Shown piece after piece: positions 18,443-39,125 of a DNA stretch of 64,000 bases; the first letter of the stretch is position 1; every line of letters starts with the position of its first letter. The translations under genes and the position numbers were made by a program. Source of the stretch: Candidatus Zixiibacteriota bacterium (lineage in GTDB: Bacteria > Zixibacteria > MSB-5A5 > GN15 > FEB-12); contig JANQPI010000029.1 of NCBI GenBank assembly GCA_028289585.1, forward strand, positions 12,169 to 76,168, written 5' to 3'. The notes under the pieces are model-generated. The model saw only the letters and a list, made by a program, of their open reading frames with translations. It made no database searches and had not been told where the DNA came from.

Positions 18443-20716
18443 GTGTTCCGCGCGCTCATTCGCCTACAGCGTCGCCTCAAGCGACTGCTCAAAATCCAGA
18501 CCGCGACCCGGCAACGTGCCGCCATTGGTCGACGGCATACCGCGATTCGCATCGCGCTCCTCGTCATCACTGGAGCCGGGATCGGTCTCCTCTATTCGGG
18601 CGACACACTTTTTGAACCGCTCGACATTCCCCGCGAAGGCGAACTCGCGCGCGAGGACGTTATTGCTCCGTTCCGCATCGAGGTGCAGAAGTCGGCGCGA
18701 GAACTGGAACGGGAACGCGAGAACATTCGCGCGTCGATTCCGTTCGTCATCGATTACGACTCAACGATTCTTCCGCGCTCCCTTTCCACAATGCGTCGTT
18801 TTGCCACTCTTGTTGATTCGATCCGAACCCAGGTCGCCGTCGATACCGCCGCCGCTCGTGTTATTGCTGACAGTATCTGGATTCAGCAGATTGAGCGACG
18901 GTTCCCGATGCTTTCGACCAACGCGATTGCCGATGCTTTTACCTCCGATATTGATCTCTCTTTGATGGTAACCCGTATCGGGCAGGTCTTTGTCGAGGAA
19001 CTCTACTCTCCGGGAGTCCTGCGTTCACGAAGCGACCTGCCGACGAGTCGAGAGTTTCAGACATTCGTCATTCGGGCGGGGGAGACGGAGTCGGTCGTCA
19101 ATCGAGATGAGTTGATTGATATGCCGGTAGCGACCGCCAAGCTCCTGTCCATTTTGAACCAGCGTGGCGACTCACTTCGCTTTTCGGTCGATGCCTACTA
19201 TTTCATTGGACGATCATTTGTCCAGCCGAACTTGCGGGTGAACATGGCGGAACACGAGCGGCGAGTCGACGAAGCGATCACACGGCTGTCCGAGGTCTCC
19301 GAAGTTCTATTCCCGGGAGACGTCATCGTTTCAGCTCGCCAACGGGTCACTGAACGCCAGGAACGCATTCTTCGCGAGATGGTTCGTCAGCAGTCGGCAC
19401 TTGATTCGAGTGAGAGTTTTCTGCAACCGATCCTGCCGGCGGTGTCTCGCCTTGCGCTCGTGTTGGTTGTGTTGGCCGGACTGTTCATCTTTCTGAAGAC
19501 GTTCCGCCGTGATATCTATTATTCGCATCAGAAGTTGTTCGGACTCATGCTGCTCTTTGGCGTCCAGTTCGCAGCGTTGTGGCTGGCCGAGCTTGCGTCC
19601 GACCAGTACAGCGTGACCTCGTTGTACGCGCTCCCAGTCGCCATTTTACCAATCATGGTCGCGGTCCTGTTCGACAGCGAAGTCTCGATTCTGGCAACGT
19701 TGGGGTTGGCGATGCTTGTTGGCGTCACACAGAAATTCGCGTTCCCGGCGGTGCTGCTCACCGTTATTGTTGGGATAACCGGAGCGTTCGTCTCGCGCCA
19801 TGTTCAGCAGCGGTCACATTTCTATCGTATCTGGCTCGTTGTGGTCCTCGCCTATTTCCTGGTCGCGCTGGTCCTCGAACAACTTCTGATGACCGAGCAA
19901 CATGAGGTCCTCGAAGACCTGTTGATCGGGCTGATCATGGGCACGATTACCGTCGCTGTCATTACCTTCCTTCTGCCGTTCTTCGAGTCTCTGTTCGGGT
20001 TCACGACCGATATTCGTCTCCTGGAGCTGTCCGACCTTAATCGACCGTTGCTCAAACGATTAGCTCTCGAGGCGCCCGGGACGTACCACCACTCCATTAT
20101 GGTTGGCAATCTCTGTGAGGCGGCTGCCAAGGCGATTGGGGGTAATCCGCTACTGGCCCGGGTGGGTGCGTACTATCATGATATCGGGAAGATCGAGATA
20201 CCCGAGTATTTCGTGGAAAATCAACTTGGTGTCAAATCACGGCATGAGAACATCTCTCCAACGATGTCGGCGATGATCCTGGCGTCGCATGTTAAAAAAG
20301 GTCGAGCTCTCGGTGAGGATGCAGACCTGCCGGATGCGGTGCTTGATTTCATTGAAGAGCACCATGGTACGATGGTCATGAGCTACTTCTACAGTAAGGC
20401 GCAGGAGCAGGGTGACGATGATGTCGACGAGATGAAATTCCGTTACCCGGGCCCCAAACCACAGACCCGCGAAACAGGAATCTCGATGCTTGCCGATGCG
20501 GTTGAGGCCTCAAGTCGTACGCTCGACGATCCCAAGCCGGCACGTGTCGACTCGCTCATCCAGCGGATTATCAACGATCGCTTTCAGTCCGGAGAGCTGT
20601 CCGAGTGTCCGTTGACGCTGGCCGATCTGGCTCTGATCAAGAGCGCGTTTGCTCAAATTCTCATTGCCGCGTTTCACCATCGCGTTCGCTATCCGGCCGG
20701 TGTTCAGCCCGACTGA
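18443..20716 (+). CDS. 7TM-HD family phosphohydrolase (PgpH-like cyclic dinucleotide phosphodiesterase)
   Basis: Extracytoplasmic domain, seven TM helices and an HD domain (APGTYHHS, YYHDIGK, EHHGT, LADAVEA). Conserved position between phoH and ybeY. Confidence 0.9.
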   Translation: MFRALIRLQRRLKRLLKIQTATRQRAAIGRRHTAIRIALLVITGAGIGLLYSGDTLFEPLDIPREGELAREDVIAPFRIEVQKSARELERERENIRASIPFVIDYDSTILPRSLSTMRRFATLVDSIRTQVAVDTAAARVIADSIWIQQIERRFPMLSTNAIADAFTSDIDLSLMVTRIGQVFVEELYSPGVLRSRSDLPTSREFQTFVIRAGETESVVNRDELIDMPVATAKLLSILNQRGDSLRFSVDAYYFIGRSFVQPNLRVNMAEHERRVDEAITRLSEVSEVLFPGDVIVSARQRVTERQERILREMVRQQSALDSSESFLQPILPAVSRLALVLVVLAGLFIFLKTFRRDIYYSHQKLFGLMLLFGVQFAALWLAELASDQYSVTSLYALPVAILPIMVAVLFDSEVSILATLGLAMLVGVTQKFAFPAVLLTVIVGITGAFVSRHVQQRSHFYRIWLVVVLAYFLVALVLEQLLMTEQHEVLEDLLIGLIMGTITVAVITFLLPFFESLFGFTTDIRLLELSDLNRPLLKRLALEAPGTYHHSIMVGNLCEAAAKAIGGNPLLARVGAYYHDIGKIEIPEYFVENQLGVKSRHENISPTMSAMILASHVKKGRALGEDADLPDAVLDFIEEHHGTMVMSYFYSKAQEQGDDDVDEMKFRYPGPKPQTRETGISMLADAVEASSRTLDDPKPARVDSLIQRIINDRFQSGELSECPLTLADLALIKSAFAQILIAAFHHRVRYPAGVQPD

Positions 20717-20717
20717 T

Positions 20718-21149
20718 ATGGAATTCGCGATCACCAAAGCGACTGCTACTCGCGTTCCTCGCCAGCGATTGCAGTCCCTGGCCCGAGCAATCGGTCGAGG
20801 CGAAAAGCTGCGGCCAGGTGACCGGGCGAGCTTGATTTTTGGCTCGGATAATCTCCTGAGACAGCTCAATGCCCGTTGGCGGGACAACGATCGACCCACC
20901 GACGTTCTCTCGTTCCCGTTCGATGACGATGGTTTTTTAGGCGAGATCTATATCTCGGTCGAGACTGCCGCTCGCCAGGCGGTTACGTATGAGGCGACGC
21001 TCTCCCAGGAGTACTTGAGGCTGGCGTGTCACGGGTGTCTGCATCTGCTTGGTTATGACCATGTTGTCGACAGTGATGCGCAACGGATGCGGGTCGCCGA
21101 GCAGCGCTACTTACGGCCATTTATCGCTGAACGAGATGTCACGTGGTGA
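20718..21149 (+). CDS. ybeY: Endoribonuclease YbeY
   Basis: TDVLSFP, GEIYIS and HGCLHLLGYDH metal-binding motif. ATG at 20718. Confidence 0.93.
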   Translation: MEFAITKATATRVPRQRLQSLARAIGRGEKLRPGDRASLIFGSDNLLRQLNARWRDNDRPTDVLSFPFDDDGFLGEIYISVETAARQAVTYEATLSQEYLRLACHGCLHLLGYDHVVDSDAQRMRVAEQRYLRPFIAERDVTW

Positions 21150-22447
21150 TAGTGCTGACACTGCTCATTTCCTTCGTGCTCTTTGCCGTGGAATACGTGG
21201 TGGCCGCGTACGCGCTGGTGGTGTACATCGATACGGAGGATCTCTCCGGTCGTTATGCCTCGGTCGGTGGGTGGCGACGGCGCTGGTTGCTGCGCATTGT
21301 TGATGATTCGCGTCAGCCACTGCAGACCCTTGCCGTCTGGCGTTCACTCGTTCTGCTGGTGGTGACAGTCCTGACGTTAACCTCAGTCCATGATGTCGTG
21401 GGTACGACTGAACGTGGGGGATGGGTCGTCTATGTGCTGGCGCTGCTCGGCGTTTGGCTGGTTCACCTCCTGGCTGTCGAGCTCCTTCCCCGGCGGACGT
21501 CGCGTAAACTGCTCGAGGATCAACTCCCCCACTTCCTCTGGCTCATTGCCGTCGTCTCGTTTCTCACGTTTCCGTTTGTTCAATTGTATCGTGCCGGCCT
21601 CGCGCGTCGGGAACCTCGGGAGGAAGACCGGGATGAGGATCGAGAAGACCTGATCGAACGGGCGCTCGCAACGGTTATGGAACAGGCCGGTGCTGACACC
21701 GAGCTGCTTGAGGCGCAGGAGCGTCAGATGATCGGATCGATCGTCCAGCTTAGCCAGACCGTTGCTCGCGAAATCATGGTGCCGCGCATCGATATCCACG
21801 GCCTGCCGCGAATGACCTCTACCTACGCCATCCGGGAAGTGCTAACCGGTACGGGGCACTCCCGATTTCCGGTGTACGACAACGATATCGATACGATCAT
21901 TGGCGTTCTTTATGTGAAAGATTTTCTCAAGCTTGAGTCATTGCCTACCGGCGATCTTGATCTCGCCGCTCATGTTCGACCGGCATTCTTCACACCAGAG
22001 TCAAAACCGATTTCTGACCTGCTCCGGGATTTTCGAACGGAGCAGGTACATCTCGCGATTGTCGTCGACGAATACGGAGGTGTTGCCGGGCTGGTGACAC
22101 TTGAGGATATCCTCGAGGAGATCGTGGGCGAGATCCAGGATGAGCACGATATCGAAGAGGCGGACTTCAAGCCGCTCCCGGATGGTGGCTTTTCGGTCGA
22201 TGCTGGTCTTTTAGTCGAGGAATTGCAGGAGTACATCCACACCGATTTCGAGACAGGCGACTATGACACAGTGGGTGGACTCATTTACCATTTGGTCGGT
22301 TCCGTTCCGCGGGAAGGTATGAAGGTACGCTGGCGCTCACTTCGGTTCACGGTCATCAGTGTGGAGGGGCAGCGGATCAAGCGGGTTGAGGTGCACCGAC
22401 GTAACCGCGACCGGGACAGCAGTAGCGACAGCTCGGCAGGTGGGTGA
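21143..22447 (+). CDS. Hemolysin/CorC (CNNM-CBS-CorC) family transporter
   Basis: N-terminal TMs, a CBS pair (REIMVPR, HSRFPVY, VVDEYGGVAGLVTLEDILEEIVGEI) and a CorC C-terminus. Confidence 0.9.
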   Translation: MVIVLTLLISFVLFAVEYVVAAYALVVYIDTEDLSGRYASVGGWRRRWLLRIVDDSRQPLQTLAVWRSLVLLVVTVLTLTSVHDVVGTTERGGWVVYVLALLGVWLVHLLAVELLPRRTSRKLLEDQLPHFLWLIAVVSFLTFPFVQLYRAGLARREPREEDRDEDREDLIERALATVMEQAGADTELLEAQERQMIGSIVQLSQTVAREIMVPRIDIHGLPRMTSTYAIREVLTGTGHSRFPVYDNDIDTIIGVLYVKDFLKLESLPTGDLDLAAHVRPAFFTPESKPISDLLRDFRTEQVHLAIVVDEYGGVAGLVTLEDILEEIVGEIQDEHDIEEADFKPLPDGGFSVDAGLLVEELQEYIHTDFETGDYDTVGGLIYHLVGSVPREGMKVRWRSLRFTVISVEGQRIKRVEVHRRNRDRDSSSDSSAGG

Positions 22448-22484
22448 CGCAGATCCTGCGGCGACACGGGAACCTGTTATTACC

Positions 22485-22539
22485 TTGACCGTTTCCCAAG
22501 TACCGGGTATACTAAAACAGATTCTGCGTTGATATACCC
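22485..22539 (+). promoter_or_regulatory. Sigma70 promoter with an overlapping inverted repeat, upstream of the small secreted ORF
   Basis: TTGACC (22485-22490), 17 nt, TATACT (22508-22513). GGGTATA (22505-22511) / TATACCC (22533-22539) inverted repeat overlaps the -10. Confidence 0.65.
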
Positions 22540-22648
22540 AGCCAATACGGGTTTCGTAGGCCGCAGCTACCATGTGTTCGCCTTGCTAGCATCAACGCAA
22601 GCACTTCGAAGATAACGTTTCATCATATAGTTTCGTAGGAGCAGAAGC

Positions 22649-22933
22649 ATGCGCAGAGATACTCTGTGGCTATTGGGGTTACTTGGCCTGATTATCGTGG
22701 CCGTGGCCCCCACCGGAGTAACCGGTGAGCATCCGTGGGATGTCGATCAGCGAATTGCAACCGATACCTTTATCGATTGGGATGACGAGCACCGCGATCC
22801 CGGTGATTCGGTCATTGTCGATACGCTCCAGGTCGACCTCCAGCCACGAAATCCCGTCGCACCAGTTCCCGTCGTGAGCGATTACTTCCGCTGGTTATCG
22901 CTCTGGTTCACCATTTCGAGCGTTGCGCTCTAG
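22649..22933 (+). CDS. Small secreted protein / putative signalling pre-propeptide (94 aa)
   Basis: RBS AGGAG at 22637-22641. Sec-type signal (MRR + LWLLGLLGLIIVAVA), then GEHPWD, an acidic linker and an amphipathic aromatic C-terminus (DYFRWLSLWF). Confidence 0.7.
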   Translation: MRRDTLWLLGLLGLIIVAVAPTGVTGEHPWDVDQRIATDTFIDWDDEHRDPGDSVIVDTLQVDLQPRNPVAPVPVVSDYFRWLSLWFTISSVAL

Positions 22934-23010
22934 TGACCGCGCCGAACGAGAATTCTTGTGACTCGATCCGCCGTACTGCCCGGCCGGATCAGTAAGGACG
23001 ATCTGAACTG

Positions 23011-25944
23011 ATGCACGACACCTCACCGACGCAAACGACCGATGCCCGGCTTTCCGCGGCATTGGCTGCCTGGGTCGACCGCCGGATTGATGACCTGAAA
23101 GCATCGTTAAGCGAGCTCTCAGCCGATGAGTTCGTCAATCCTGCCGACAAAGGCCTGTTCCATATCATCCAAGGGGACTTGGGACTGCATGAAACCGATT
23201 ACCGGACGGCTATCAAACATGGCCTCGCCGGGGTCCGTGCGCTCGCCAATTCCTCGCACAATGTGCTCTATGCCCGGTCGCTGGTTGTTCTGTCCAAGGC
23301 GTACTACGCGGTTGGCGACCTCCGGCAGGCCGAGATGAAAGCGCGCGATGCCCTCTCGGCATATCGACGGGCTGGCGATATCGACGGCCAGATCAATGCG
23401 TTCAACTTGCAGGCGCGATGCAGCTTCACCCGATCTGACTACCCGGCAGCCGAACGATTCCTGGCCGATGCGGTGACACTCGCCGACGAAAACGAGGAAA
23501 AGCTGGCTCAGCTGACCGGTAACGCTGGTCGCGTGAAGATTCTTACGGGTAAATGGGACGAAGCCGCACGTGATCTGAAATTTGCGCTCGACTACCAAAC
23601 AGCCAACGACAAGCGCTCCTCTCAGGCGATCAACTTGCTATCAATTGGGTATCTGGCCCTTCGCCAGCGGGAGTTCGGCAAAGCCGAAAAGGTTTGGCAG
23701 AAGGCCGAGCGGTTAATCCGTGACCTTTCGCTCAAACGCGAGCAGGTCATTCTCCTCGAGTATCGGGGCGAGTTAGCGCTCGAACGATCTGATCTGTTTC
23801 GAGCCAAAGCGCATCTCAGCGAGGCGTATCATCAGGGGCGCCTGATCGCACCTGATTCGGCGCTCGTCTCCCAGGCGTCGCGACGACTGGCGGAAGTCGA
23901 GTGGGAACTCGACAATCTCGATGATGCGATGAAGCATGCGCAGAAGGCGCTCGACCTGGCACAGCAGCTCGGCGAGCGAATTGAAGCTGCCCTCGCGATG
24001 CGAACGATTGCCCGTATCTTTGCCGCTCACGGTGACGATGATTCGGCTGTTGAGCATATCACCGACGCGATTGCGCTCTGTCGCGACATTGGCGAACCCT
24101 ATGATCTGGCTCGCACGCTCCTTGTCGCCGCAGAACTGGCGAGTCGACCGGCTGTCGACGATTTTGCTCGAGCTCGTTCGTGGTTCGATGAGGCCGGCCG
24201 CATCTTCCGCCGTCTTGATGTCGATTACTGGCTCGCCGAGACCGATTACCGTTTCGGTGTTGTTTTGTGTCAGCAAGGCGAACTGGCTCGCGGTTTCCGC
24301 AAACTCTCACGGGCGGAGCGAATTTTCGCAGCCCTCGATGATTCCGGTCGCGTCCGTGCGGTTGAGCAGTTCATTCGTTCTCTGGCTGACCAGGCGGTTG
24401 CCGTATCGATCTCCGAGCAGAACACCTACAAGGTGTTCGGGAATTTTCTGACCGGAGATGAACTGTCCGACCTGCGGGACGGTCACATCGAAGATGTGTT
24501 CCGTGTCTTGCTCGATCGGTCCCATGGTGACCGGGCGATACTCTACCTGCCCGAATTTGCGTCGCATCCGGTGGTTTCGTCTCACAACATCTCAGCCGAC
24601 ACGGCCAAGTTGTTCGAAGACAACTTCCGACGCCTGATCGGTGAAGAGGTCCACCCGTCGCGACCTACGCTGCTGCTCGATACCCGCCGGGATCCGTATA
24701 TCAACGGACTTTTCGGCTCCGTCCCCGAGGTTGTCGCGTCCGTCATTGTGGTCCCCTTCCAGACTTCGGTGAGTACGACGGGCTACCTGTATGTCGATAA
24801 GCTGTCCGGGGAAGGCGGATTGAATCCGTTCGATCAGGCCGCTTTGAACTTCGCCGTCGGTTTTTCTGACCTGGTTGCGTTCAAGGCCGTGGAAATGCAA
24901 AAGGCATCCCTGATGGAGGATAATCGACGGCTGCGGGCCCAGATCGGCGAGTCTGTCGCCTTTCCGAATATCATTACCCAGAACGCCGACATGAGAGCGC
25001 TGCTTACTCAGGTCCAGCAGGTTGTCGACGCTACCATTACGGTGCTTATCGAAGGTGAGACTGGATCTGGTAAAGATCTTCTCGCCCGTGCGATTCACTA
25101 CAACTCTTCACGGCGCGACAAGCGGTTCATTTCGGTGAATTGTGCGGCCCTTCCTGAAACCTTGCTCGAATCAGAGCTCTTCGGCTATCGCAAGGGCGCG
25201 TTCACCGGTGCCGACCGTGACAAGATGGGGCTGTTTGAGGAAGCCGATGGCGGAACGTTTTTCCTGGATGAAATCGGCGATATGCCGCTTGCCATCCAGG
25301 TGAAGCTGCTGCGTGTCCTGGAAAGCCAGGAGGTCGTTCGACTCGGCGAGTCAACGCCGCGTAAGGTTGATGTTCGCGTTCTCTCCGCGACCAATAAGGA
25401 TCTGCGTGAGGCGATGGCGGCCAACGAGTTCCGTTCGGACCTCTACTATCGCCTGGCGGCGCTGTCGTTCCGGCTCCCGGCTTTGCGGGAACGGACCGAG
25501 GATATTCCCTTGTTGGTGAACCACTTCTTAAACAGTTCGGGAAAAGAGCTGAGTGCATCAGCGATGCAGGCGATGATTCGCTACCCGTGGCCCGGCAACA
25601 TTCGAGAGCTTGAGAATGAGGTCAAGAAGATGATACTCCTCGCAGGCGACCGGGTGCTGATCGACCATGAACTACTGGCTCGCAAGCTGACCGCAGGTTT
25701 ACCCGATTCGCAGGTCCCCGCAACGCCTGAGAATGCGACGGACAGTAAGGGTCTACCCCAGCTGAGCGAGAAATTCTCGCTCTACGATTTCATCGCAGCT
25801 CATGAGAAGCGGTTTCTCATTGCCGCATTGAAGGCGACCAAAGGAGTGAAGAAGCACGCCGCGGCGCGGTTATCGATCCCCGAGTCCACCCTTCGCCTCA
25901 AGCTGAAAGAATACGATATCGATCTGTCACAACTCGATGACTGA
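23011..25944 (+). CDS. TPR-GAF-AAA+-HTH sigma54-dependent transcriptional activator
   Basis: About 460 aa of TPR-like helical repeats, a GAF-like region, Walker A GETGSGKD, ESELFG..KGAFTGA, Walker B FFLDEI, DLYYRL and a C-terminal Fis-type HTH. No receiver domain or TM. Confidence 0.92.
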   Translation: MHDTSPTQTTDARLSAALAAWVDRRIDDLKASLSELSADEFVNPADKGLFHIIQGDLGLHETDYRTAIKHGLAGVRALANSSHNVLYARSLVVLSKAYYAVGDLRQAEMKARDALSAYRRAGDIDGQINAFNLQARCSFTRSDYPAAERFLADAVTLADENEEKLAQLTGNAGRVKILTGKWDEAARDLKFALDYQTANDKRSSQAINLLSIGYLALRQREFGKAEKVWQKAERLIRDLSLKREQVILLEYRGELALERSDLFRAKAHLSEAYHQGRLIAPDSALVSQASRRLAEVEWELDNLDDAMKHAQKALDLAQQLGERIEAALAMRTIARIFAAHGDDDSAVEHITDAIALCRDIGEPYDLARTLLVAAELASRPAVDDFARARSWFDEAGRIFRRLDVDYWLAETDYRFGVVLCQQGELARGFRKLSRAERIFAALDDSGRVRAVEQFIRSLADQAVAVSISEQNTYKVFGNFLTGDELSDLRDGHIEDVFRVLLDRSHGDRAILYLPEFASHPVVSSHNISADTAKLFEDNFRRLIGEEVHPSRPTLLLDTRRDPYINGLFGSVPEVVASVIVVPFQTSVSTTGYLYVDKLSGEGGLNPFDQAALNFAVGFSDLVAFKAVEMQKASLMEDNRRLRAQIGESVAFPNIITQNADMRALLTQVQQVVDATITVLIEGETGSGKDLLARAIHYNSSRRDKRFISVNCAALPETLLESELFGYRKGAFTGADRDKMGLFEEADGGTFFLDEIGDMPLAIQVKLLRVLESQEVVRLGESTPRKVDVRVLSATNKDLREAMAANEFRSDLYYRLAALSFRLPALRERTEDIPLLVNHFLNSSGKELSASAMQAMIRYPWPGNIRELENEVKKMILLAGDRVLIDHELLARKLTAGLPDSQVPATPENATDSKGLPQLSEKFSLYDFIAAHEKRFLIAALKATKGVKKHAAARLSIPESTLRLKLKEYDIDLSQLDD

Positions 25945-25965
25945 TTGGTTGATGCTTCAGCGACG

Positions 25966-26775
25966 ATGAGTTTGCCCATCCGCGGCCTGGTCACCTTTGG
26001 TGGTCAGGCCGCTGTCCATATGGCAATCGATGAGTGGTTGGCCGCCAAGGCTCTTCGCGAGCCGGCGATCTACCTCCGTCTCTATACCTGGGACGAGCCG
26101 GCGATTACGATCGGTTTCCATCAGGATCTCCAGCGCAGCGTTGCCATCTCGGCGCTGGGAACGACGCCGACAATCCGCCGCGTTACCGGTGGGCGGGCGC
26201 TCCTGCATGATCCGTCCGAACTTACCTACGCGGTGGCTGCGCCAACCGACCGCGGACCTCTGGCGGCCAATCTTGGCGCTACCGGGCGACTCATCGCTGC
26301 GACCTGGGAGGATTGGCTCGCCTCGATGGCCATCGCGGGGACGTATCAGCGGCAGGCGGCCCCGGCCGAACGGTCGCCCGATTTTGCCCGCACCGCAGCC
26401 TGTTTTGCCTCCCACAGTCGCCATGAGATCACCGGTCGACGAGGGAAGCTGGTTGCCTCGGCCCAACGTCGTCAGGATAATGTTCTCCTTCAGCATGGTT
26501 CCGTTAAGTGGCGGGGGATTCGCGCTCATCCGGCTTTGGGGTCGGTCGCCGGGGAATCGACCGAACCGCTCCCACCGGTTACCGAATCAGAACTGGCACA
26601 GGCGGCACACACTTGGATGCTTGCCTGTACGGAGCGGTTTGGCGGGGTGTTTGATAGCTATCAGCGAACGGCTGTCGACGACGCGGAAATTGCGTCAATC
26701 GCACGAAAAATTGCTTCCGAGCCACTCGCGCACCGAGATTTCGTTAAACAGACCCAAACGACCGCCAGTCAGTAA
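25966..26775 (+). CDS. Lipoate-protein ligase A / octanoyltransferase (LipM-like) family
   Basis: MAIDEWL, LRLYTW..PAITIG, RRVTGGRALLH, KLVASAQ and LQHGS. Confidence 0.88.
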   Translation: MSLPIRGLVTFGGQAAVHMAIDEWLAAKALREPAIYLRLYTWDEPAITIGFHQDLQRSVAISALGTTPTIRRVTGGRALLHDPSELTYAVAAPTDRGPLAANLGATGRLIAATWEDWLASMAIAGTYQRQAAPAERSPDFARTAACFASHSRHEITGRRGKLVASAQRRQDNVLLQHGSVKWRGIRAHPALGSVAGESTEPLPPVTESELAQAAHTWMLACTERFGGVFDSYQRTAVDDAEIASIARKIASEPLAHRDFVKQTQTTASQ

Positions 26776-26860
26776 GTTGACAGGCAAAACCCGGGGAAAA
26801 AGCGCTTGACGACGCACTCGCCAAGCGGCTTTCTTGCCCCTCACGGCAATGCCTTAGGTG

Positions 26861-26890
26861 TTGTCTGGCTGAGATTTGGCTCGATATGAT
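26861..26890 (+). promoter_or_regulatory. Candidate sigma70 promoter of the TonB receptor operon
   Basis: TTGTCT (26861-26866), 18 nt, TATGAT (26885-26890). Confidence 0.4.
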
Positions 26891-27065
26891 AGGGTCCTTC
26901 GGAGTTGCGTCGGGAAGCGTCATCAAACCGCCTGAAAGAGCACGGCTCGTACGTCACACCGGTCTTCACTTACCCGCCATGTGGGCCGATATCGACCGTA
27001 ACGCACACGGTCATCATTCGACTGAGGATAGCATGCTTATGATAGGTCTGCGAGGAGGTTTCGCG

Positions 27066-30000: not shown

Positions 30001-30404
30001 AGCCGCGACTGTTCGGTATTCCGATCCCGAATGGCTGGACGTTGAACATCACCTCGATCCTTGAGTCAGGGGCACCGTTTACGCCGGCAACGAACTTCCC
30101 GAACCTGAGTCAGTCGGGTGTGACCGATCCGCAGCGTAACTCATTGCGGTATCCAAGCACGGCGTTCTTTGACGTTCGCTTCGCGAAGGAATTCGAGATC
30201 GAGGGCCTCGACTTCGAGGCAATCCTCTGGGTCGAGAACATTTTCGACAATCGCAACGTCGAGTTTGTCTATTCAGCGACCGGTCGTCCCGATACTCGGC
30301 AGAACCGTAACGGTGTCGTGCTGGAGGGGACGCCGTTCGATGTCAACCCGTACAACTATGATGAGGGTCGCCAGGTTCGCCTCGGCCTGCAGCTGAATCT
30401 GTAA
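27066..30404 (+). CDS. TonB-dependent receptor with an N-terminal carboxypeptidase-regulatory-like domain and a Ca-binding repeat insert
   Basis: Likely ATG at 27066 after GAGGAGG. Signal peptide, G.VTDLDGNY.I, plug motifs (IRGGRAGEV...VDGV, GGFDPEFGNALSG), PDLxxQKT-like NPNLDYQKT and C-terminal GRQVRLGLQLNL. Confidence 0.9.
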   Translation: MGTRRLSALLVTVLCAGLLGILAPIAQASTGTIKGKLTNEDGEPVVGASVLVVGTTRGAVTDLDGNYTIRNLEPGRVTLRITSLEYATVEITDVLVRLDITTEQNQVLERTALETGEVITVEGTQEIIDKFNVANQVSIGAEEIQHRPVQTVDNILQSVAGVQTTNTGEIFIRGGRAGEVAFIVDGVPISDPLGGLGSAGASLNLTAGSIQEIQVIKGGFDPEFGNALSGIVNIRSNFGNKDNTQLSIQYITDDLGNTDLNKYSRNQDFLTLTLSGPDPILSSRILPALGLKFLEGREFTYYLYAEVDKNDGIYQYNDFTSPTTRFERRDFSLFGVGVPERLFNRYNIQTNFRFRPRQNLQFRLSYKLWDTRNTAFGRFDWEYRYTPNTAQVQERVQQSLSFEVVHAVDKNTTYEVLLSYLQTDITQKPGDPNNPGRGLDPDQIPSQGEWERFNDVNGNGIYDPPEPIINLFPDTALYGTDYSGPGYTFGENLFLDNVQGGGGGSFANFRFNNNGVVDSLEGEAFVDLNGNGVWDAGDFLVDKNGNGLYDLDLRERVFTPRAEPFIDGDSIIGEPFTDLNGNGVYDEGIDGFVISFGADNQDLNRDGIYNGPNQIWSPGVPFFDRNGNGLYDPPNFTYDPGEQFTDVNGNGVYDRGGSSDFLLPNTYADDIIWLDQQVRTLRAEFKATRLAGNHELKVGGFIQRDDFSFGLIDRPYINYSGRPDGGAFPDRGAFRDFYSYDPWQGALYFRDKLEYGSMIASLGIRWDFFLQDVNDLASTFRDDDQGGLLLGDRQKVSPRIGFSYPISDKAKVYFNYGHFYQLPTFGRFYARNTSSANQNDVLGNPNLDYQKTIQYAFGVRYAVTENYALDIQGYFKDEFDKINQTSELRGSIRRNVYTNSDYGRSRGIELTLERRGSGYVNGEISYTYQFAFGKASEAAEAFLDQGELDRQPLDEAPLDNDVRHSLKSSIIFFIPSTVKPRLFGIPIPNGWTLNITSILESGAPFTPATNFPNLSQSGVTDPQRNSLRYPSTAFFDVRFAKEFEIEGLDFEAILWVENIFDNRNVEFVYSATGRPDTRQNRNGVVLEGTPFDVNPYNYDEGRQVRLGLQLNL
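28428..29027 (+). repeat. Seven DxNGNGx(Y/W)D-type protein repeats in the receptor
   Basis: DVNGNGIYD, DLNGNGVWD, DKNGNGLYD, DLNGNGVYD, DLNRDGIYN, DRNGNGLYD and DVNGNGVYD. Confidence 0.85.
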
Positions 30405-30436
30405 TGAGCATGAACCACACAGGTGGAAGTCGCGAT

Positions 30437-31411
30437 ATGAATCGTATTTCTCGCACCCTCAAACGCTCCGGAGCGACGTGGTTGCTACGCGGAGCCGCCA
30501 CAGCCCTTGTTATTGGCTTGCTCCTGCCGAGTTCCGGATTCGGACAGGCAAAAGTTGGCACCACCGGAGCGCAGTTTCTGGAGATCGGTGTCTCGGCGCG
30601 GGCGATGGGAATGGCTGAGGCCTTCACGGCGACGGTTGATGACGTCTCCGCCGTCTATTACAACCCGGCCGCGTTGTCGTATCTCTTTGGTCGTGAGGTC
30701 ATGGCCACGTATGTGAGCCTTCCCGCCGATATCAATTACGGCTTTGCTGCTTTCGGCTTGCCGCTCGAATCGGTCGGCGGTGTTCTCGGTGTGGCGGCAT
30801 ATGCGTTGTCGACCGGTGACATAGTCGAACGAACCTACGAACGACCCCTTGGTACTGGACGAACGTTCTCGGCGAATGACTTTGCGTTCGCGGTTAGCTA
30901 CGGCCGCTACCTGACCGACCGTTTTTCGGTTGGTTTCACCGTCCGGTTCATCCAGCAAATCGCTCACGACTATAGCACATCGGGGTGGTCGGCCGATGTC
31001 GGTACGCTGTATGATACCGGTTTCCGCGGCTTCAAGCTCGCGATGTCGATCTCCAACTTTGGCCCCGACTTGCAGTTCATCGACGAGGACTACCCGATTC
31101 CGATTAACTTCAAATTCGGCGGTTCGATTAACGTTGTCGAGGCGACTGACCACCTGGTCACGTTTGCGGCCGAGGGCTCGCACCCGGCCGATAACCTTGA
31201 GAAGTACAACGCCGGCCTCGAATATACCTTCAACGATCGTTATATCCTGCGCGCCGGCAGCCGGTTCAACTATGATGTCGACGGCCTCACGTTCGGTGGT
31301 GGCCTCCGCCTCCCGTTCGGTGAAGAAGGACAGATCGCTGTTGATTACGCTTACCAGGATTTCGGCATTCTCACCGAGGTGCATCGATTTAGCTTGGGTC
31401 TCGCCTTTTAG
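30437..31411 (+). CDS. PorV/PorQ family outer-membrane protein
   Basis: GTTGAQFLEIGVSARAMGM, A.YYNPA.L and FadL-like barrel ending HRFSLGLAF. Likely start at 30437; the alternative at 30404 overlaps the upstream stop. Confidence 0.88.
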   Translation: MNRISRTLKRSGATWLLRGAATALVIGLLLPSSGFGQAKVGTTGAQFLEIGVSARAMGMAEAFTATVDDVSAVYYNPAALSYLFGREVMATYVSLPADINYGFAAFGLPLESVGGVLGVAAYALSTGDIVERTYERPLGTGRTFSANDFAFAVSYGRYLTDRFSVGFTVRFIQQIAHDYSTSGWSADVGTLYDTGFRGFKLAMSISNFGPDLQFIDEDYPIPINFKFGGSINVVEATDHLVTFAAEGSHPADNLEKYNAGLEYTFNDRYILRAGSRFNYDVDGLTFGGGLRLPFGEEGQIAVDYAYQDFGILTEVHRFSLGLAF

Positions 31412-36106: not shown

Positions 36107-36241
36107 TGCAGCTGCCTGCACTATCCGCCCCCCGGGACGTCGCGAAAGACGCACCCCTGCAACTCTATGCACGATGTAATTTGTTGATCGACAATGAATT
36201 ACGTCGAGTATCTCGCGTTTCAGTTCGGGCACCCCCTTTGC
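36107..36241 (+). promoter_or_regulatory. Sigma54 promoter with two candidate enhancer sites and an IHF-like site
   Basis: GGCAC-CCCCT-TTGC at 36228-36241 (-24/-12). TGCA-N6-TGCA at 36107-36120 and 36158-36171. The reverse strand of 36177-36189 reads GATCAACAAATTA, versus IHF consensus WATCAANNNNTTR. Confidence 0.72.
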
Positions 36242-36269
36242 GCTAAGGCCTCGTGGAGGAAAGAAGGCT

Positions 36270-39125
36270 ATGCGCACTTGTGGTACACATCTCATTATCG
36301 GACTCCTGCTCATCACGGGCATGGCCACGTCCGCTTCAGCTCGGGGACTGGTCCATCCGAATCTGACTAACCACTCGTCGCAGTTGCCGATGACGATTCT
36401 TGTGGAAGTCGAATCGACTCCCGGATCGCGCCAGCACCTGTCAGCCGCGATGTCCGCTCCGATCCGCACGGATCGCATGAAAGCGGTGCCGAGTGCCGCC
36501 CAGCAGGCCGCAGCCGGTCGCGATAGTCGATTCGTCCCCACCCTTCAGCAGTTTGCCACTGATTCGGTGCGTTCGTTCTGGGTCGCTCCGTTCTATGCTC
36601 TGACGATTAATCCTACCGATCTTGATCTCATCGCCAATCTCGACGGTGTCGTGGCGATCTACCCGAATGTTCCCCTTGAAGCAGTCGCTCCGGTGCGTGT
36701 TGAACCGTCGGGTTCGGCTGCCGGGATTGCTACCGAACTGACAGCGCTCAACGTTCCGGCAGTCTGGTCGCAGGGCTTCACTGGTCGTGGCCGTCTGGTC
36801 TGCTCGTTTGATACGGGTGTCGACGGAGATCATCCTGCCTTGACCAATCGTTGGCGTGGAAACAGCGCGTCTACCGATGCCAGCTGGTTTTCACCGTTGG
36901 CGTCAGCAACACTTCCCACTGACCGAACTGGTCATGGTACTCATACAATGGGAATCATGGTTGGGCGCGACGGTGACGATCGCTTTGGTGTCGCACCGGA
37001 TGCCGAGTGGATTTCCGCCGGCGTGATCGACCAGGGACGTTCTCTGGGCGTTACGATTGCTGACATTCTCGATGCGTTTCAGTGGGCGTTGAATCCGGAT
37101 GGTGATCTCACGACGACCGATGATGTCCCCGACGTGATTCTCAATAGCTGGGGAATTCCAGCCGGTATCTTCGCCGATTGTGACAATAGCTTCTGGGGTG
37201 CCATCGATCTCGTTGAAGCAGCGGGGATCGTCACGATCTTCGCAGCCGGCAACGAAGGTCCGCTGCCGCGCACGGTGCGGGATCCCGCTGATCGGGCCAG
37301 CTCACCGTTGAACGCTTTTTCGGTGGGAGCTGTCGATGCCGAAAGCAGCATCGCCTCGTTCTCGTCGCGGGGCCCGTCGCGCTGCAATCCCGAAGCGGTG
37401 AAACCAGAAGTCGTTGCTCCCGGTGTGTCGATTCGTTCCGCGACAAAGGACGGTGGATATGCGCTTATGAGTGGAACGTCGATGGCCGCGCCGTACATCG
37501 CGGGCCTTGTCGCGTTGGCTCGCGAAGCGTATCCCAACGCCTCGGTCCGTCGTATCAAAGAAGCGCTTATTGCCTCGGCTCAGGATCTCGGCGTACTCGG
37601 TGAAGACAATGCCTACGGCTGGGGGATGGTTGATGCCGCTCTCTTTCTGGAGCTACTCGATGATCCGGCACCAGTGTCGTTCTCGCTTCGTGAGGTTGCT
37701 TGGGAGAATGGTGCAATCGGTGCCCCGGGCTCCGAGATCGGTCTTGAGATCACGCTCGGCCAGTCCGGTGCGCATCTCTCAGCGGTTGCGGCTCGTCTAA
37801 CCAGCCTTGATGCGGAAGCTGCCGAGGTCCAGGGTGATTCGACGTCGTTCCTGTTTGGTCCCATCGGCTCAATCGCACAGACGTCCCAGCCTTTTGTCAT
37901 CACGCTGGCCGATACCCTGACGCACGGTCGGTCACTGGGCTTTGCTCTAAAGCTCTACCGCTCGACCGGAGAACTCATCGACTCGCTCACGTTCGAATTG
38001 GCTGCCGGCTACCCGGCGCCGGGGCTTCTGGGCGCCCATGAGTCAGGCGGTTTGGCCCTTTCCGTTTCGGATTTTGGTCAATTCGGGCTGGCTGCCGGCT
38101 CGCTCTATCCCGTCGGTGGCGAAGGTCTGCGCTTTGGTGGCTCGGATAATCTGCTCTACGAAGGCGCCATCTTTGTCGGCCGCTCGCCGCTCCAACTCGC
38201 GACCGCGACGCGTGGAGACGACGGTCGTTTCGCACCGTCTGACTTTGTCGCTACCGAGGCGCTTGCTACTGGTACCGGAGGTAGCTATCGGGCGACGATG
38301 AAAGACCAGGCGGCTCCGATCCCGATACCGATCACGATTCGTCAGGAGACTGAAGCTGACAGCGACGGTCGGTTCATTATTCTCAAGTATACGATCGTCA
38401 ACACCAGCCTGGAGATCATCTCGAATCTCGCTATGGGTTGTCTGTTTGACCTTGATATGCCTGGTGGAGACATCGTCGATTATGACGCCGTTGAAGGCAT
38501 GCTGACCATCAGAGGCGGGACCGGCCCAATCATCGGGCTGACAGCGCTCGAGAATGGCCGTCTCTTCCATCGGCTCGCAAATGGCAGCGAGAAGCTGGGG
38601 CTTTCCCGCGGCGATCTCTACTCCCTGTTGTCTGACAGTGTATCGCGCGATGATGCGGCGTCGGACGACGCTATGGTTAGTCTTACTTCCCAGCCGGTCA
38701 CCCTCCACCCCGGGGATTCCGCCACTGTCAGTTACGTCGTCCTGGGAGCCGATGACTTCGCGACTGTCTACGACAACCTGATTGCGGCACGGGAACGATA
38801 CCTCTCGCCGACCGACGTTGACGACGACAACCCGCTGGGGCTACCGGATGACTTCACGCTCCACGCCAACTATCCGAACCCGTTCAATCCGACGACCACG
38901 ATCAGCTGGTCGCTGCAGTCACGGGCGCGGGTCGAACTTACGGTCGTCAATCTGCTCGGTCAGACGGTGGCGACGCTGGCCGATGGCGAGTATCCGGCAG
39001 GGACGCATTCTCTGCGCTGGGACTCCCGCGACCAGTCCGGTCGCAGACTGGCCAGCGGTGTCTATTTTGCCCGGCTGACGACCCCGTCGGGGTCCGCTGT
39101 ACGAAAAATGATGCTTCTAAAATAG
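36270..39125 (+). CDS. Secreted S8 (subtilisin-like) serine protease with T9SS/FlgD-Ig C-terminal domain
   Basis: Signal peptide, prodomain, catalytic FDTG / HGTHTMG / GTSMA, and a CTD (ANYPNPFNP...LASGVYF..L). Confidence 0.93.
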   Translation: MRTCGTHLIIGLLLITGMATSASARGLVHPNLTNHSSQLPMTILVEVESTPGSRQHLSAAMSAPIRTDRMKAVPSAAQQAAAGRDSRFVPTLQQFATDSVRSFWVAPFYALTINPTDLDLIANLDGVVAIYPNVPLEAVAPVRVEPSGSAAGIATELTALNVPAVWSQGFTGRGRLVCSFDTGVDGDHPALTNRWRGNSASTDASWFSPLASATLPTDRTGHGTHTMGIMVGRDGDDRFGVAPDAEWISAGVIDQGRSLGVTIADILDAFQWALNPDGDLTTTDDVPDVILNSWGIPAGIFADCDNSFWGAIDLVEAAGIVTIFAAGNEGPLPRTVRDPADRASSPLNAFSVGAVDAESSIASFSSRGPSRCNPEAVKPEVVAPGVSIRSATKDGGYALMSGTSMAAPYIAGLVALAREAYPNASVRRIKEALIASAQDLGVLGEDNAYGWGMVDAALFLELLDDPAPVSFSLREVAWENGAIGAPGSEIGLEITLGQSGAHLSAVAARLTSLDAEAAEVQGDSTSFLFGPIGSIAQTSQPFVITLADTLTHGRSLGFALKLYRSTGELIDSLTFELAAGYPAPGLLGAHESGGLALSVSDFGQFGLAAGSLYPVGGEGLRFGGSDNLLYEGAIFVGRSPLQLATATRGDDGRFAPSDFVATEALATGTGGSYRATMKDQAAPIPIPITIRQETEADSDGRFIILKYTIVNTSLEIISNLAMGCLFDLDMPGGDIVDYDAVEGMLTIRGGTGPIIGLTALENGRLFHRLANGSEKLGLSRGDLYSLLSDSVSRDDAASDDAMVSLTSQPVTLHPGDSATVSYVVLGADDFATVYDNLIAARERYLSPTDVDDDNPLGLPDDFTLHANYPNPFNPTTTISWSLQSRARVELTVVNLLGQTVATLADGEYPAGTHSLRWDSRDQSGRRLASGVYFARLTTPSGSAVRKMMLLK

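Follow-up and report, generated by a model that had tools for sequence, protein, structure and literature searches.

A small PWD-motif protein with a predicted signal peptide is paired with a TPR-bearing sigma54 activator in Zixibacteria

Described systems related to the locus

In the RRNPP(A) peptide quorum-sensing systems of Firmicutes (Rap-Phr, NprR-NprX, PlcR-PapR, PrgX, AimR-AimP), a small precursor with a Sec signal is encoded adjacent to a cytoplasmic TPR receptor that controls transcription, and NprR-NprX and PlcR control secreted proteases. The published signature (PMC10075063) comprises a receptor of 250-500 aa and a propeptide of 10-100 aa (21-50 aa in validated cases), and in all known RRNPP systems the mature peptide is C-terminal. 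Separately, some sigma54 activators (NifL-NifA, PspA-PspF, HrpV-HrpS), and ZraP-ZraSR, are controlled by a separately encoded neighbouring protein rather than by phosphorylation, and NtrC and PspF are autoregulated at a sigma70 promoter. Literature searches for TPR-containing enhancer-binding proteins or for Zixibacteria sigma54 found nothing relevant. Peptide-enclosing TPR superhelices are also found in eukaryotes (LGN/Pins, kinesin light chain with its W-acidic and Y-acidic motifs, OGT, TONSOKU), where the ligands are extended, acidic, aromatic short linear motifs from disordered partners (PMC6214655). Finally, TonB boxes occur in disordered translocation domains of colicins B, D and M and pesticin, and in TBDT N-termini (PMC11658791).

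Here we analyzed a 64,000-nt stretch of a Candidatus Zixiibacteriota bacterium contig (hereafter the window; GCA_028289585.1, JANQPI010000029.1, 12,169 to 76,168), in which a first-pass annotation had proposed an RRNPP-like, quorum-type system of a diderm acting through a sigma54 activator. The observation on which that proposal rested, a 94-aa ORF with its own promoter, ribosome-binding site, predicted signal peptide and HPWD motif lying 77 nt upstream of a TPR/GAF-like/AAA+/HTH regulator, was confirmed. The proposed interpretation was only partly supported, as discussed below. The features of the locus are as follows.

22448..22460, no strand assigned: operator O1, palindrome CGCAGATCCTGCG, directly after the corC stop codon
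22485..22513, plus strand: sigma70-type promoter TTGACC-17-TATACT of the small-ORF/regulator operon
22516..22528, no strand assigned: weak O2-like half-palindrome AACAGATTCTGCG, just after the -10 element
22529..22648, plus strand: long 5' leader (about 130 nt) with a duplicated GTTTCGTAGG...ATG element, the repeats lying at 22551-22560 and 22630-22639
22649..22933, plus strand: small ORF, 94 aa, preceded by a GGAG ribosome-binding site
22649..22726, plus strand: predicted Sec signal peptide (residues 1-26, MRRDTLWLLGLLGLIIVAVAPTGVTG)
22727..22747, plus strand: core motif E-H-P-W-D-V-D at the predicted mature N-terminus, followed by an acidic linker
22805..22822, plus strand: second motif D-S-V-I-V-D, TonB-box-like, with an alternative copy, DTFID, at 22763-22777
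22880..22930, plus strand: aromatic amphipathic C-terminal segment DYFRWLSLWFTISSVAL
23011..25944, plus strand: 977-aa sigma54 enhancer-binding protein with a predicted TPR superhelix (residues 12-467), GAF-like domain (482-600), coiled linker, AAA+ (654-819; GAFTGA at 25195-25212), lid and HTH_8 (931-968)
26682..26694, no strand assigned: O1-like site CGCGGAAATTGCG in the 3' end of the LplA-like gene, about 125 nt upstream of the TBDT promoter
36227..36242, plus strand: candidate target, sigma54 promoter GGGCACCCCCTTTGCG ahead of genes for S8 (36270-39125) and M6 (39231-42071) T9SS-secreted proteases

Conserved pairing and the small protein

The first-pass annotation had named the absence of adjacent small secreted ORFs, or of a conserved HPW motif, as grounds for rejecting its reading, and neither was the case. 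In 144 of 150 related loci with enough upstream DNA, a small signal-peptide ORF carrying E-[H/D/N]-P-W-D-x-D at the predicted signal-peptidase site lies directly upstream of the regulator; most of the other six were not inspected, and five loci missed by an earlier, narrower pattern had variant motifs. The expected frequency of a P-W-[DE] tripeptide in random ORFs of this size is, by our estimate, under 1%, and the recurrence is thus far more than chance. Reverse look-ups from two small-protein homologues both landed next to a TPR-sigma54 regulator. The gap between the genes is 77 nt in the window, with no terminator in between, and ranges across loci from -4 to 151 nt (median 45), with ATGA overlaps in one clade. 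No other neighbouring gene is universal. A word-index search with the window's small protein found only itself, and profile searches were needed to reveal the family, which has 332 clusters, all unannotated and all stand-alone. Hits in Gemmatimonadota and Verrucomicrobiota from the first scan were ordinary NtrC-type regulators matching only the AAA+ part.

The signal peptide was inferred from hydropathy and the -3/-1 rule only: the hydrophobic core has a Kyte-Doolittle family median of 2.87, and the c-region carries P at -5/-6 and small residues at -3/-1 (VTG|EHPWD in the window). In a logo from 126 unique homologues, in which P-W was required for detection of the ORFs, the motif columns were E in 94, H/D/N in 105, W in 123 (F in 3), D in 112 and the final D in 93. 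A P-W-x match, found with a loosened pattern, was present in all 173 retrieved database homologues. A lipoprotein reading was rejected as a family feature, as a Cys in the h-region is common but is absent in the window copy and several clades, and the lipobox is poor. A metal-binding reading of the N-terminal X-His was also rejected, as His flips to Asp, Asn, Trp or Leu at least 18 times and the distance to the cleavage site varies. Acylation of the small protein on lysine by the LplA-like enzyme was ruled out because the window protein has no Lys.

Beyond the core motif, we found two further conserved elements. The D column of the second motif (family form D-T-x-I/V-V) is at least 90% conserved in one family alignment, and the strict pattern, which resembles the TonB pentapeptide (D/E)-T-x-(V/I/T)-V (PMC11658791), occurs in 74 of 281 sequences, about a quarter, against 5 in shuffles, a 14-fold enrichment in a Gly/Asp/Ser-rich, disordered chain. 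This resemblance is a lead only. In contrast to the colicins, the protein has its own predicted Sec signal peptide, is about 70 residues when mature, and has no toxin or receptor-binding domain. The third element is a Trp-containing aromatic segment near the C-terminus. Many homologues have a basic tail after this hydrophobic segment, which raised the possibility of a type I membrane protein tethering the regulator through a cytoplasmic tail. However, the 19-residue hydropathy median is 1.0, only 11 of 126 segments reach the TM-like threshold of 1.6, nine members including the window copy have no tail, and the segment often contains Arg, Asp or His, so that this reading is already largely refuted and very unlikely.

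The upstream position, small size, signal peptide and short or overlapping junction would also be compatible with a cis-acting leader or monitoring substrate, such as SecM, MifM or VemP, whose translation or export would control translation of the regulator gene. We consider this very unlikely, since the motif lies immediately after the signal peptide, too early for force-released arrest, and both the distance from the aromatic segment to the stop codon (0 to 57 residues) and the intergenic gap vary. The long 5' leader is seen across the family (palindrome to ATG, median 178 nt, range 125-259), and no Rfam family matched it.

The regulator, its operators and candidate targets

Pfam and NCBIfam profiles assigned the regulator TPR_12/TPR_MalT, Sigma54_activat (PF00158, E 4.9e-70, residues 654-819), AAA_lid_14 (PF25601) and HTH_8 (PF02954, 931-968), with no receiver domain; GETGSGK is at residue 682 and GAFTGA at 729-734. 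The protein thus has the AAA+ domain, Walker A, GAFTGA loop and C-terminal HTH of a bacterial enhancer-binding protein. The GAF call made by the first-pass annotation is weak: Pfam GAF is sub-threshold but matches the full profile length in three of four homologues, while the fourth (from related locus L108) matches only the C-terminal half but reaches the cut-off. AlphaFold2 (pLDDT 90) predicted 22 helices, about 11 TPR repeats, at residues 12-467, followed by an alpha/beta domain at 482-600. The best Foldseek matches were TPRs that enclose extended peptides (TSK-H3, LGN-Insc/NuMA, OGT and APPBP2), and no RRNPP structure appeared among the top 50 hits. The similarity to the eukaryotic superhelices, which includes long TPR_12-type repeats and Asn-rich A-helices, is structural only, with no evolutionary or functional link, and here the TPR is fused to a bacterial AAA+ transcription activator. 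Invariant or near-invariant polar residues (N132, N171, S211, R243, Q288, R291 and E322/E325) lie on successive TPR A-helices. In the model of a natural read-through fusion of the two genes (locus L049), confidence was raised only at EHPWDAD (pLDDT at least 50, against 26-31 in the flanking linker) and at the aromatic segment, predicted as a helix (52-69), while the second motif region stayed below 50. This is an indirect hint of contact, read from confidence values alone.

The promoter of the pair matches the consensus at 10 of 12 positions, and CTTGACA is conserved at this place across loci. The palindrome CGCA-N5-TGCG was found in 106 of 117 unique upstream regions, against a background of 0.07 per 450 nt, usually 29 nt upstream of the TTGAC -35 element (37-45 nt in some loci, 37 nt here), and O1 is the top PWM hit in the window. 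The family consensus has a second site, (A/G)GCA-N5-TGCG, at or after the transcription start, although the window copy scores only 6.9 bits. Operator and HTH change together in one clade, and CGCA-N5-TGCG is the likely, though inferred, binding site. The second-best PWM hit in the window (14.2 bits) is the O1-like site upstream of the TBDT. In related loci, 10 hits of at least 14 bits fall in the Lpl gene (24 kb) against about 3 in the other 650 kb; five of those may be driven by coding sequence.

A consensus scan for sigma54 promoters near the pair in the window found nothing within two mismatches, and only a weak TGGCTGAGATTTGGCT lies before the TBDT. The candidate promoter ahead of the S8 and M6 proteases is 13 kb away. 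In three related loci (L005, L119 and L120), however, an M6 protease with a GGCAC-N5-TTGC promoter is the divergent neighbour of the pair, and all five exact GGCAC-N5-TTGC sites in about 1 Mb of loci (L005, L119, L120, L122 and L183) lie in the divergent intergenic region beside the pair, three of them before M6 proteases. The regulator is the only sigma54 activator gene in the window. The link is suggestive and indirect, as no O1-like site lies upstream of the window's protease promoter. Instead, TGCA-N6-TGCA repeats are found there, which differ from O1 and are not shared by the sigma54 promoters of L005, L119, L122 or L183.

Possible roles of the pair

Our preferred explanation, which remains tentative, is that the two genes form a cognate signal-receptor module conserved across Zixibacteria. 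In this view, the operon is transcribed from the sigma70-type promoter, probably autoregulated by the regulator through the CGCA-N5-TGCG operators; the small protein is exported by Sec; signal peptidase exposes E-[HDN]-P-W-D-x-D as the new N-terminus of an acidic, disordered chain; this Trp-acidic peptide is released in the periplasm, possibly after a TonB-dependent step using the D-T-x-I/V-V motif; and it is re-imported and binds in the inner channel of the TPR superhelix, relieving or imposing TPR/GAF control of the AAA+ ATPase. The regulator would then drive sigma54 promoters, probably including those of the S8/M6 proteases. The Trp-acidic ligands of kinesin light chain TPRs (PMC6214655) are consistent with such binding. 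Of these elements, the conserved pairing, the motifs, the operator architecture and the predicted TPR fold are established by our analyses, whereas the cleavage site, export, contact between TPR and motif, release, re-import, any TonB binding and the regulon are inferences.

The logic resembles that of RRNPP, for example NprR-NprX controlling a protease, and the receptor, as in those systems, carries TPRs, whose predicted fold here resembles that of peptide-binding TPRs, and is encoded directly adjacent to the precursor gene, whose conserved core is a short 7-residue motif. However, the pair does not match the published signature (PMC10075063). The receptor is 977 aa, with GAF-like, AAA+ and Fis-type HTH domains after the TPRs, and the precursor gene lies upstream of it in a diderm host. 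The window precursor is 94 aa, but the family median is 113 aa (range 79-135), and most members exceed the range. The conserved 7-residue motif is at the N-terminus, not the C-terminus, of the predicted mature chain, and two further conserved elements in a mature chain of 60-90 residues are more than a pro-peptide needs. No peptide permease is linked to the locus. In addition, P-W-D is essentially invariant in the tree of the family, fixed across the phylum without pherotypes, which argues against a quorum code; under our model, the signal is probably cell-autonomous or reports on the envelope. Relative to the partner-regulated sigma54 activators, the partner here carries a predicted signal peptide and is disordered, and no membrane sensor kinase is present.

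Alternatively, and just as possibly, there is no direct contact: the small protein may work only in the periplasm, for example as a disordered TonB-binding or envelope-associated factor whose P-W-D motif binds a periplasmic partner, and be merely co-transcribed with its regulator, while the TPR domain senses imported oligopeptides or another protein. The signal peptide, the acidic disordered chain, the TonB-box-like motif and the fixed motif, as if read by a conserved housekeeping partner, favor this view, as does the presence of a SusC-like TBDT and a PorV-like gene downstream in many loci, with an operator-like site upstream of the TBDT. However, the TBDT linkage is present in only a subset of loci, whereas the regulator is almost always linked, the spacing within the pair is tight or overlapping, the conserved TPR groove lacks another obvious ligand, and confidence is raised at the motif in the fusion model.

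A third, less likely possibility is a secretion-coupled partner switch, in which the TPR domain binds the un-exported precursor in the cytoplasm, at the motif and perhaps along the whole disordered chain, and Sec export removes this anti- or co-activator, as for FlgM-sigma28 or ExsE. The regulator would thereby read Sec capacity or secretion load and tune genes for heavily secreted proteins. Co-translation from one mRNA, a TPR channel long enough for an extended partner with several motifs (as in LGN complexes), three conserved elements spread over about 70 residues, a likely regulon of Sec/T9SS cargo and the lack of motif diversification are in line with this. However, Sec export is constitutive and fast, no precedent is known for a Sec-exported anti-activator of an enhancer-binding protein, the second motif shows no raised confidence in the fusion model, and a TonB-box-like motif implies a periplasmic life.

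A more far-reaching reading, which we regard as unlikely though not excluded, is that this would be the first peptide or mini-protein signalling circuit of the exported-precursor and cytoplasmic-TPR-receptor kind in a diderm phylum, in which a Sec-exported disordered protein would carry a Trp-acidic ligand for an 11-repeat TPR sensor fused to a sigma54 activator, and also a TonB box that lets it pass, or report on, the neighbouring TonB-dependent transporter, so that the cell would couple outer-membrane uptake or envelope state to sigma54-dependent expression of T9SS-secreted proteases.

Cytoplasmic TPR receptors for exported peptides are regarded as a speciality of Firmicutes (monoderms), and sigma54 activators are not known to use TPR sensors or exported partners. 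Here, a whole candidate phylum keeps such a pair as a core, single-copy module with a near-invariant 7-residue motif, and its parts, a 7-mer motif, a 13-bp operator and a soluble receptor, are small and defined, which makes the hypothesis directly testable. If the TPR reads that motif, it would give a new input mode for enhancer-binding proteins, a new solution to peptide signalling across two membranes or a new kind of secretion or envelope monitor, and a handle on how uncultured Zixibacteria control secreted proteases and TonB-dependent uptake.

Organization and conservation of the gene pair

The 94-aa ORF and the 977-aa ORF lie 77 nt apart on the + strand, with no terminator-like site between them, and are preceded by a sigma70-type promoter. 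The features of the two genes and of the region around them are as follows.

18443-22447, housekeeping-type PgpH (7TM-HD), YbeY and CorC genes, directly upstream
22485-22513, sigma70-type promoter TTGACC-17-TATACT, 10 of 12 matches
22551-22574 and 22630-22651, duplicated GTTTCGTAGG(N11-12)ATG element in the 5′ leader
22649-22933, + strand, 94-aa ORF
23011-25944, + strand, 977-aa ORF, the regulator
25945-26775, LplA/LipB-like ligase gene, between the regulator and the transporter
26777-27065, conserved CGCTTGAC-N17-TATCTT-like sigma70 promoter in front of a 1112-aa SusC-like TonB-dependent transporter
30404-31411, PorV/FadL-like gene following the transporter, which is also followed by a 781-aa protein with no Pfam match

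In the leader, the first copy of the duplicated element precedes a 5-codon mini-ORF (MCSPC*), while the second is the real RBS/start of the small ORF. The small protein has no Pfam or NCBIfam match. It comprises a hydrophobic signal-like N-terminus (residues 1-26), the sequence EHPWDVD (residues 27-33), an acidic linker, the sequence DSVIVD (residues 53-58) and the C-terminal segment DYFRWLSLWFTISSVAL (residues 78-94). The regulator has TPR_12/TPR_MalT, Sigma54_activat (E 4.9e-70), AAA_lid_14 and HTH_8 matches, with GETGSGK at residue 682 and GAFTGA at 729-734, and has no receiver domain. An AlphaFold2 model of residues 1-650, with 36 homologues in the alignment, gave a mean pLDDT of 90 and shows 22 helices (about 11 TPRs, residues 12-467), an alpha/beta domain (482-600) and a long helix (609-649). 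Pfam GAF matches the alpha/beta domain only below threshold. In three of four homologues the match covers the whole profile, while in the fourth (from L108, one of the related loci, which we designate by L numbers) only the C-terminal half matches, although that one reaches the cut-off. The first-pass annotation, which had described a signal-peptide ORF upstream of a soluble regulator with TPR-like repeats, GAF, AAA+ and HTH, was therefore correct in what it observed.

It had also proposed, as a test, that homologous regulators should consistently have such small ORFs next to them. A single-sequence search with the small protein found only itself. The regulator, however, has full-length relatives, and each carries a small signal-peptide ORF with x-P-W-D directly upstream. 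A metagenome scan with the TPR part gave 80 loci at 23-52% identity, and a species-level genome scan gave 100 relatives, of which 80 were kept. Nearly all of these are labelled Zixiibacteriota or GN15, or come from bins labelled Ignavibacteriales or Calditrichota that group within the same family tree. Of 150 loci with at least 330 nt upstream, 144 have the ORF. Five loci missed by an earlier, narrower pattern had variant motifs (HPWG, GPFD, HPWAED and DPWNE), and the pattern was widened to include these; the six loci that remained unmatched include L126, L137, L139 and L156.

A profile of 80 small proteins found 332 clusters at 50% identity in 1.84 billion representatives, 187 of them at E below 1e-10. 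All of the 150 best hits listed are stand-alone proteins of 79-140 aa, and where named at all they are called "hypothetical protein" from Zixibacteria. All 173 retrieved sequences contain a P-W-x match when the pattern is loosened to include Ser, within the first 70 residues. Two reverse look-ups from small-protein homologues both landed directly upstream of a TPR-sigma54 regulator. In contrast, no other neighbour is universal. The LplA-like gene and the SusC-like transporter follow in one large subset only, and corC precedes the pair in a smaller subset. The order PhoH-PgpH-YbeY-CorC-small ORF-regulator-Lpl-TBDT is also seen in L207.

Sequence and evolution of the small protein family

The logo from 126 unique members is E (94) - H/D/N (105) - P - W (123) - D (112) - x - D (93), although P-W was part of the search pattern and its count is therefore partly by construction. 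The motif is preceded by P-x-x-S-G, a typical signal-peptidase I c-region, so that in most members cleavage, as predicted by rule from sequence alone, should make E-H-P-W-D the mature N-terminus. In many main-clade small ORFs (e.g., L049 3607-3921, where LLVAC is followed by FVSVPVFSG and then EHPWD) a Cys is conserved inside the signal-peptide h-region. Some members might therefore be lipoproteins with the motif 10 residues from the lipid anchor, but this Cys is absent in the window copy.

After the motif comes a Gly/Asp/Ser/Thr/Pro/Asn-rich linker with a median of 41 residues and a net charge of -7. Alignment of the family shows two more conserved elements. The first begins with a near-invariant Asp about 20 residues after P-W-D and has the form D-[TS]-x-x-[VI]. 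Its strict form, D-[TS]-[TVILM]-[IVTLF]-[VIT], occurs in 74 of 281 sequences compared with 5 in composition-preserving shuffles, and a looser form occurs in 166 of 281. The strict motif has the form of a TonB box, a pentapeptide found in all TonB-dependent transporters and in the disordered translocation domains of TonB-dependent colicins, such as ETLTV in colicin M (PMC11658791). This resemblance is only a lead, but a TonB-box-like motif implies a periplasmic life for the protein. Alternatively to any contact with the regulator, the small protein may have a purely periplasmic role, a possibility to which we give the same tentative weight as to our preferred reading.

The second element is a Trp-containing aromatic segment, which is predicted as an amphipathic helix and is not a membrane helix in most members, as its 19-residue hydropathy median is 1.0 and only 11 of 126 reach 1.6. 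The small protein acting as a type I membrane tether fits the data poorly and is considered very unlikely, as is a SecM-like leader function for the small ORF.

On a tree of 123 TPR domains, HPWD is ancestral to the whole family. The residue before Pro flips among H, D and N at least 18 times, while P-W-D stays fixed across branches longer than one change per site. This is unlike RRNPP peptides, which diversify into specificity classes, and suggests a fixed structural ligand rather than a private code.

The predicted TPR sensor and its possible contact with the motif

The polar residues that are invariant or near-invariant in 36 diverse sequences are N132, N171, S211 (N208 among close relatives), R243, Q288, R291 and E322/E325. 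By the helix boundaries of the model, these lie on the first (A) helices of six successive repeats, and in TPR superhelices the A helices line the inner channel. A Foldseek search against the PDB ranked first TONSOKU bound to the H3 tail, LGN/Pins bound to Inscuteable/NuMA/Frmpd4 peptides, the OGT TPR and the APPBP2 degron receptor, all of which enclose extended peptides, whereas no RRNPP receptor is in the top 50. Trp-acidic and Tyr-acidic motifs are established ligands of the TPR_12-type domain of kinesin light chain (PMC6214655).

In an attempt to assess contact between the two proteins, we took advantage of the 39 loci in which the two genes are in the same reading frame. By reading the stop codons as Gly, we obtained for L049 a natural fusion of the mature small protein, the intergenic linker and regulator residues 1-650, with a paired alignment of 36 such fusions. 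AlphaFold2 kept the TPR and GAF-like parts confident. Within the small-protein part, only EHPWDAD (residues 4-10, pLDDT at least 50, block mean 61) and the aromatic helix (pLDDT 52-69) rose above the background, while the rest of the small protein and the linker, including the TonB-box-like region, scored 26-39. This is what docking of the motif would look like, although the result rests on pLDDT alone, without a control fold of the small protein by itself, and is a hint only.

Direct contact between a cytoplasmic TPR and a motif that follows a signal peptide would need either re-import or binding before export. We tentatively rank re-import of the N-terminal peptide first, level with the purely periplasmic role, as signal peptidase would create its N-terminus, the conserved core is only 7 residues, and the TonB-box-like motif implies a periplasmic life. 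Binding before export, by which the regulator would act as a Sec-load monitor, comes next and is somewhat less likely, although the long channel and the three spaced motifs fit it.

Cis-regulatory architecture and candidate output

A palindrome, CGCA-N5-TGCG (extended form GGCGCA-N5-TGCGCC), occurs in 106 of 117 unique upstream regions, usually 29 nt (37-45 nt in some loci) upstream of CTTGACA, compared with a background of 0.07 per 450 nt. A second, weaker copy, (A/G)GCA-N5-TGCG, follows the -10 element, and a leader of about 100-150 nt precedes AGGAGG and the ATG. The window copy of the palindrome is at 22448-22460. The clade that lacks it (L105-L117, L124, L125) has a different repeat at the same place, GGCAA-N5-TTGCC or GACAA-N5-TTCTC, and also a different HTH, with IPESSLRFK and KK[S/F/A]AA instead of IPESTLRLK and KKHAA. 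This is one evolutionary event, but it fits the regulator binding its own promoter. Such autoregulation at a sigma70 promoter is established for NtrC and PspF.

A PWM built from these sites found its top three hits in the 64-kb window at 22445, 26679 and 39001. The second lies at the end of the LplA-like gene, about 125 nt before the conserved CGCTTGAC promoter of the transporter, and the third lies 230 nt before the M6 protease ATG. The transporter promoter has counterparts in L001 (7900-8200), L002 (7865-8115) and L005 (5965-6370). Genes homologous to the LplA/LipB-like ligase gene are found in about 30 loci, and CGCA-N5-TGCG sites are enriched inside them, partly at a homologous coding position. 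Several loci have such a site in this gene, and in five it coincides with the codons for A-(H/Q)-Y-V-R.

The candidate output of the regulator in the window comprises the following.

About 36110 and 36160, two TGCA-N6-TGCA repeats
36227-36242, sigma54-type promoter GGGCACCCCCTTTGCG
36270-39125, S8 subtilase with a T9SS C-terminal domain
39231-42071, M6/InhA-like peptidase with T9SS sorting-domain-like matches below Pfam's cut-offs (FlgD_ig, CHU_C)

Exact GGCAC-N5-TTGC occurs only five times in about 1 Mb of related loci, and all five lie in the divergent intergenic region beside the pair. In L005, L119 and L120 the gene driven would be an M6 peptidase, which in L119 has a FlgD_ig and a sub-threshold T9SS sorting-domain match. 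In L122 (931-2997, - strand) and L183 (about 799) the divergent gene is not a protease; in L122 it is a 688-aa putative lipoprotein with no Pfam match. The regulator is the only sigma54 AAA+ gene in the window. Against a link to the proteases, the window's promoter has TGCA-N6-TGCA repeats and no site resembling the CGCA-N5-TGCG operator.

The first-pass annotation had interpreted the pair as an RRNPP-like quorum-type system in which a TPR sensor gates a sigma54 enhancer-binding protein, and our results support this only in part. The system would work like RRNPP in outline, and NprR-NprX also controls a protease, but in the signature of PMC10075063 it fails defining features of that family, namely receptor size and architecture, precursor length and position of the peptide. 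By domain content the regulator is a bona fide sigma54 enhancer-binding protein. No description of a TPR-sensing enhancer-binding protein or of this small-protein family was found in the literature searched. While the pairing, its conserved motifs and the palindrome upstream of the promoter come directly from the sequence comparisons, export and cleavage of the small protein, TonB binding, contact between motif and TPR, re-import, autoregulation and the regulon are inferred. The original observation is thus confirmed and extended: this is a real, undescribed gene pair, found in about 100 species-level genomes, nearly all of them Zixibacteria.
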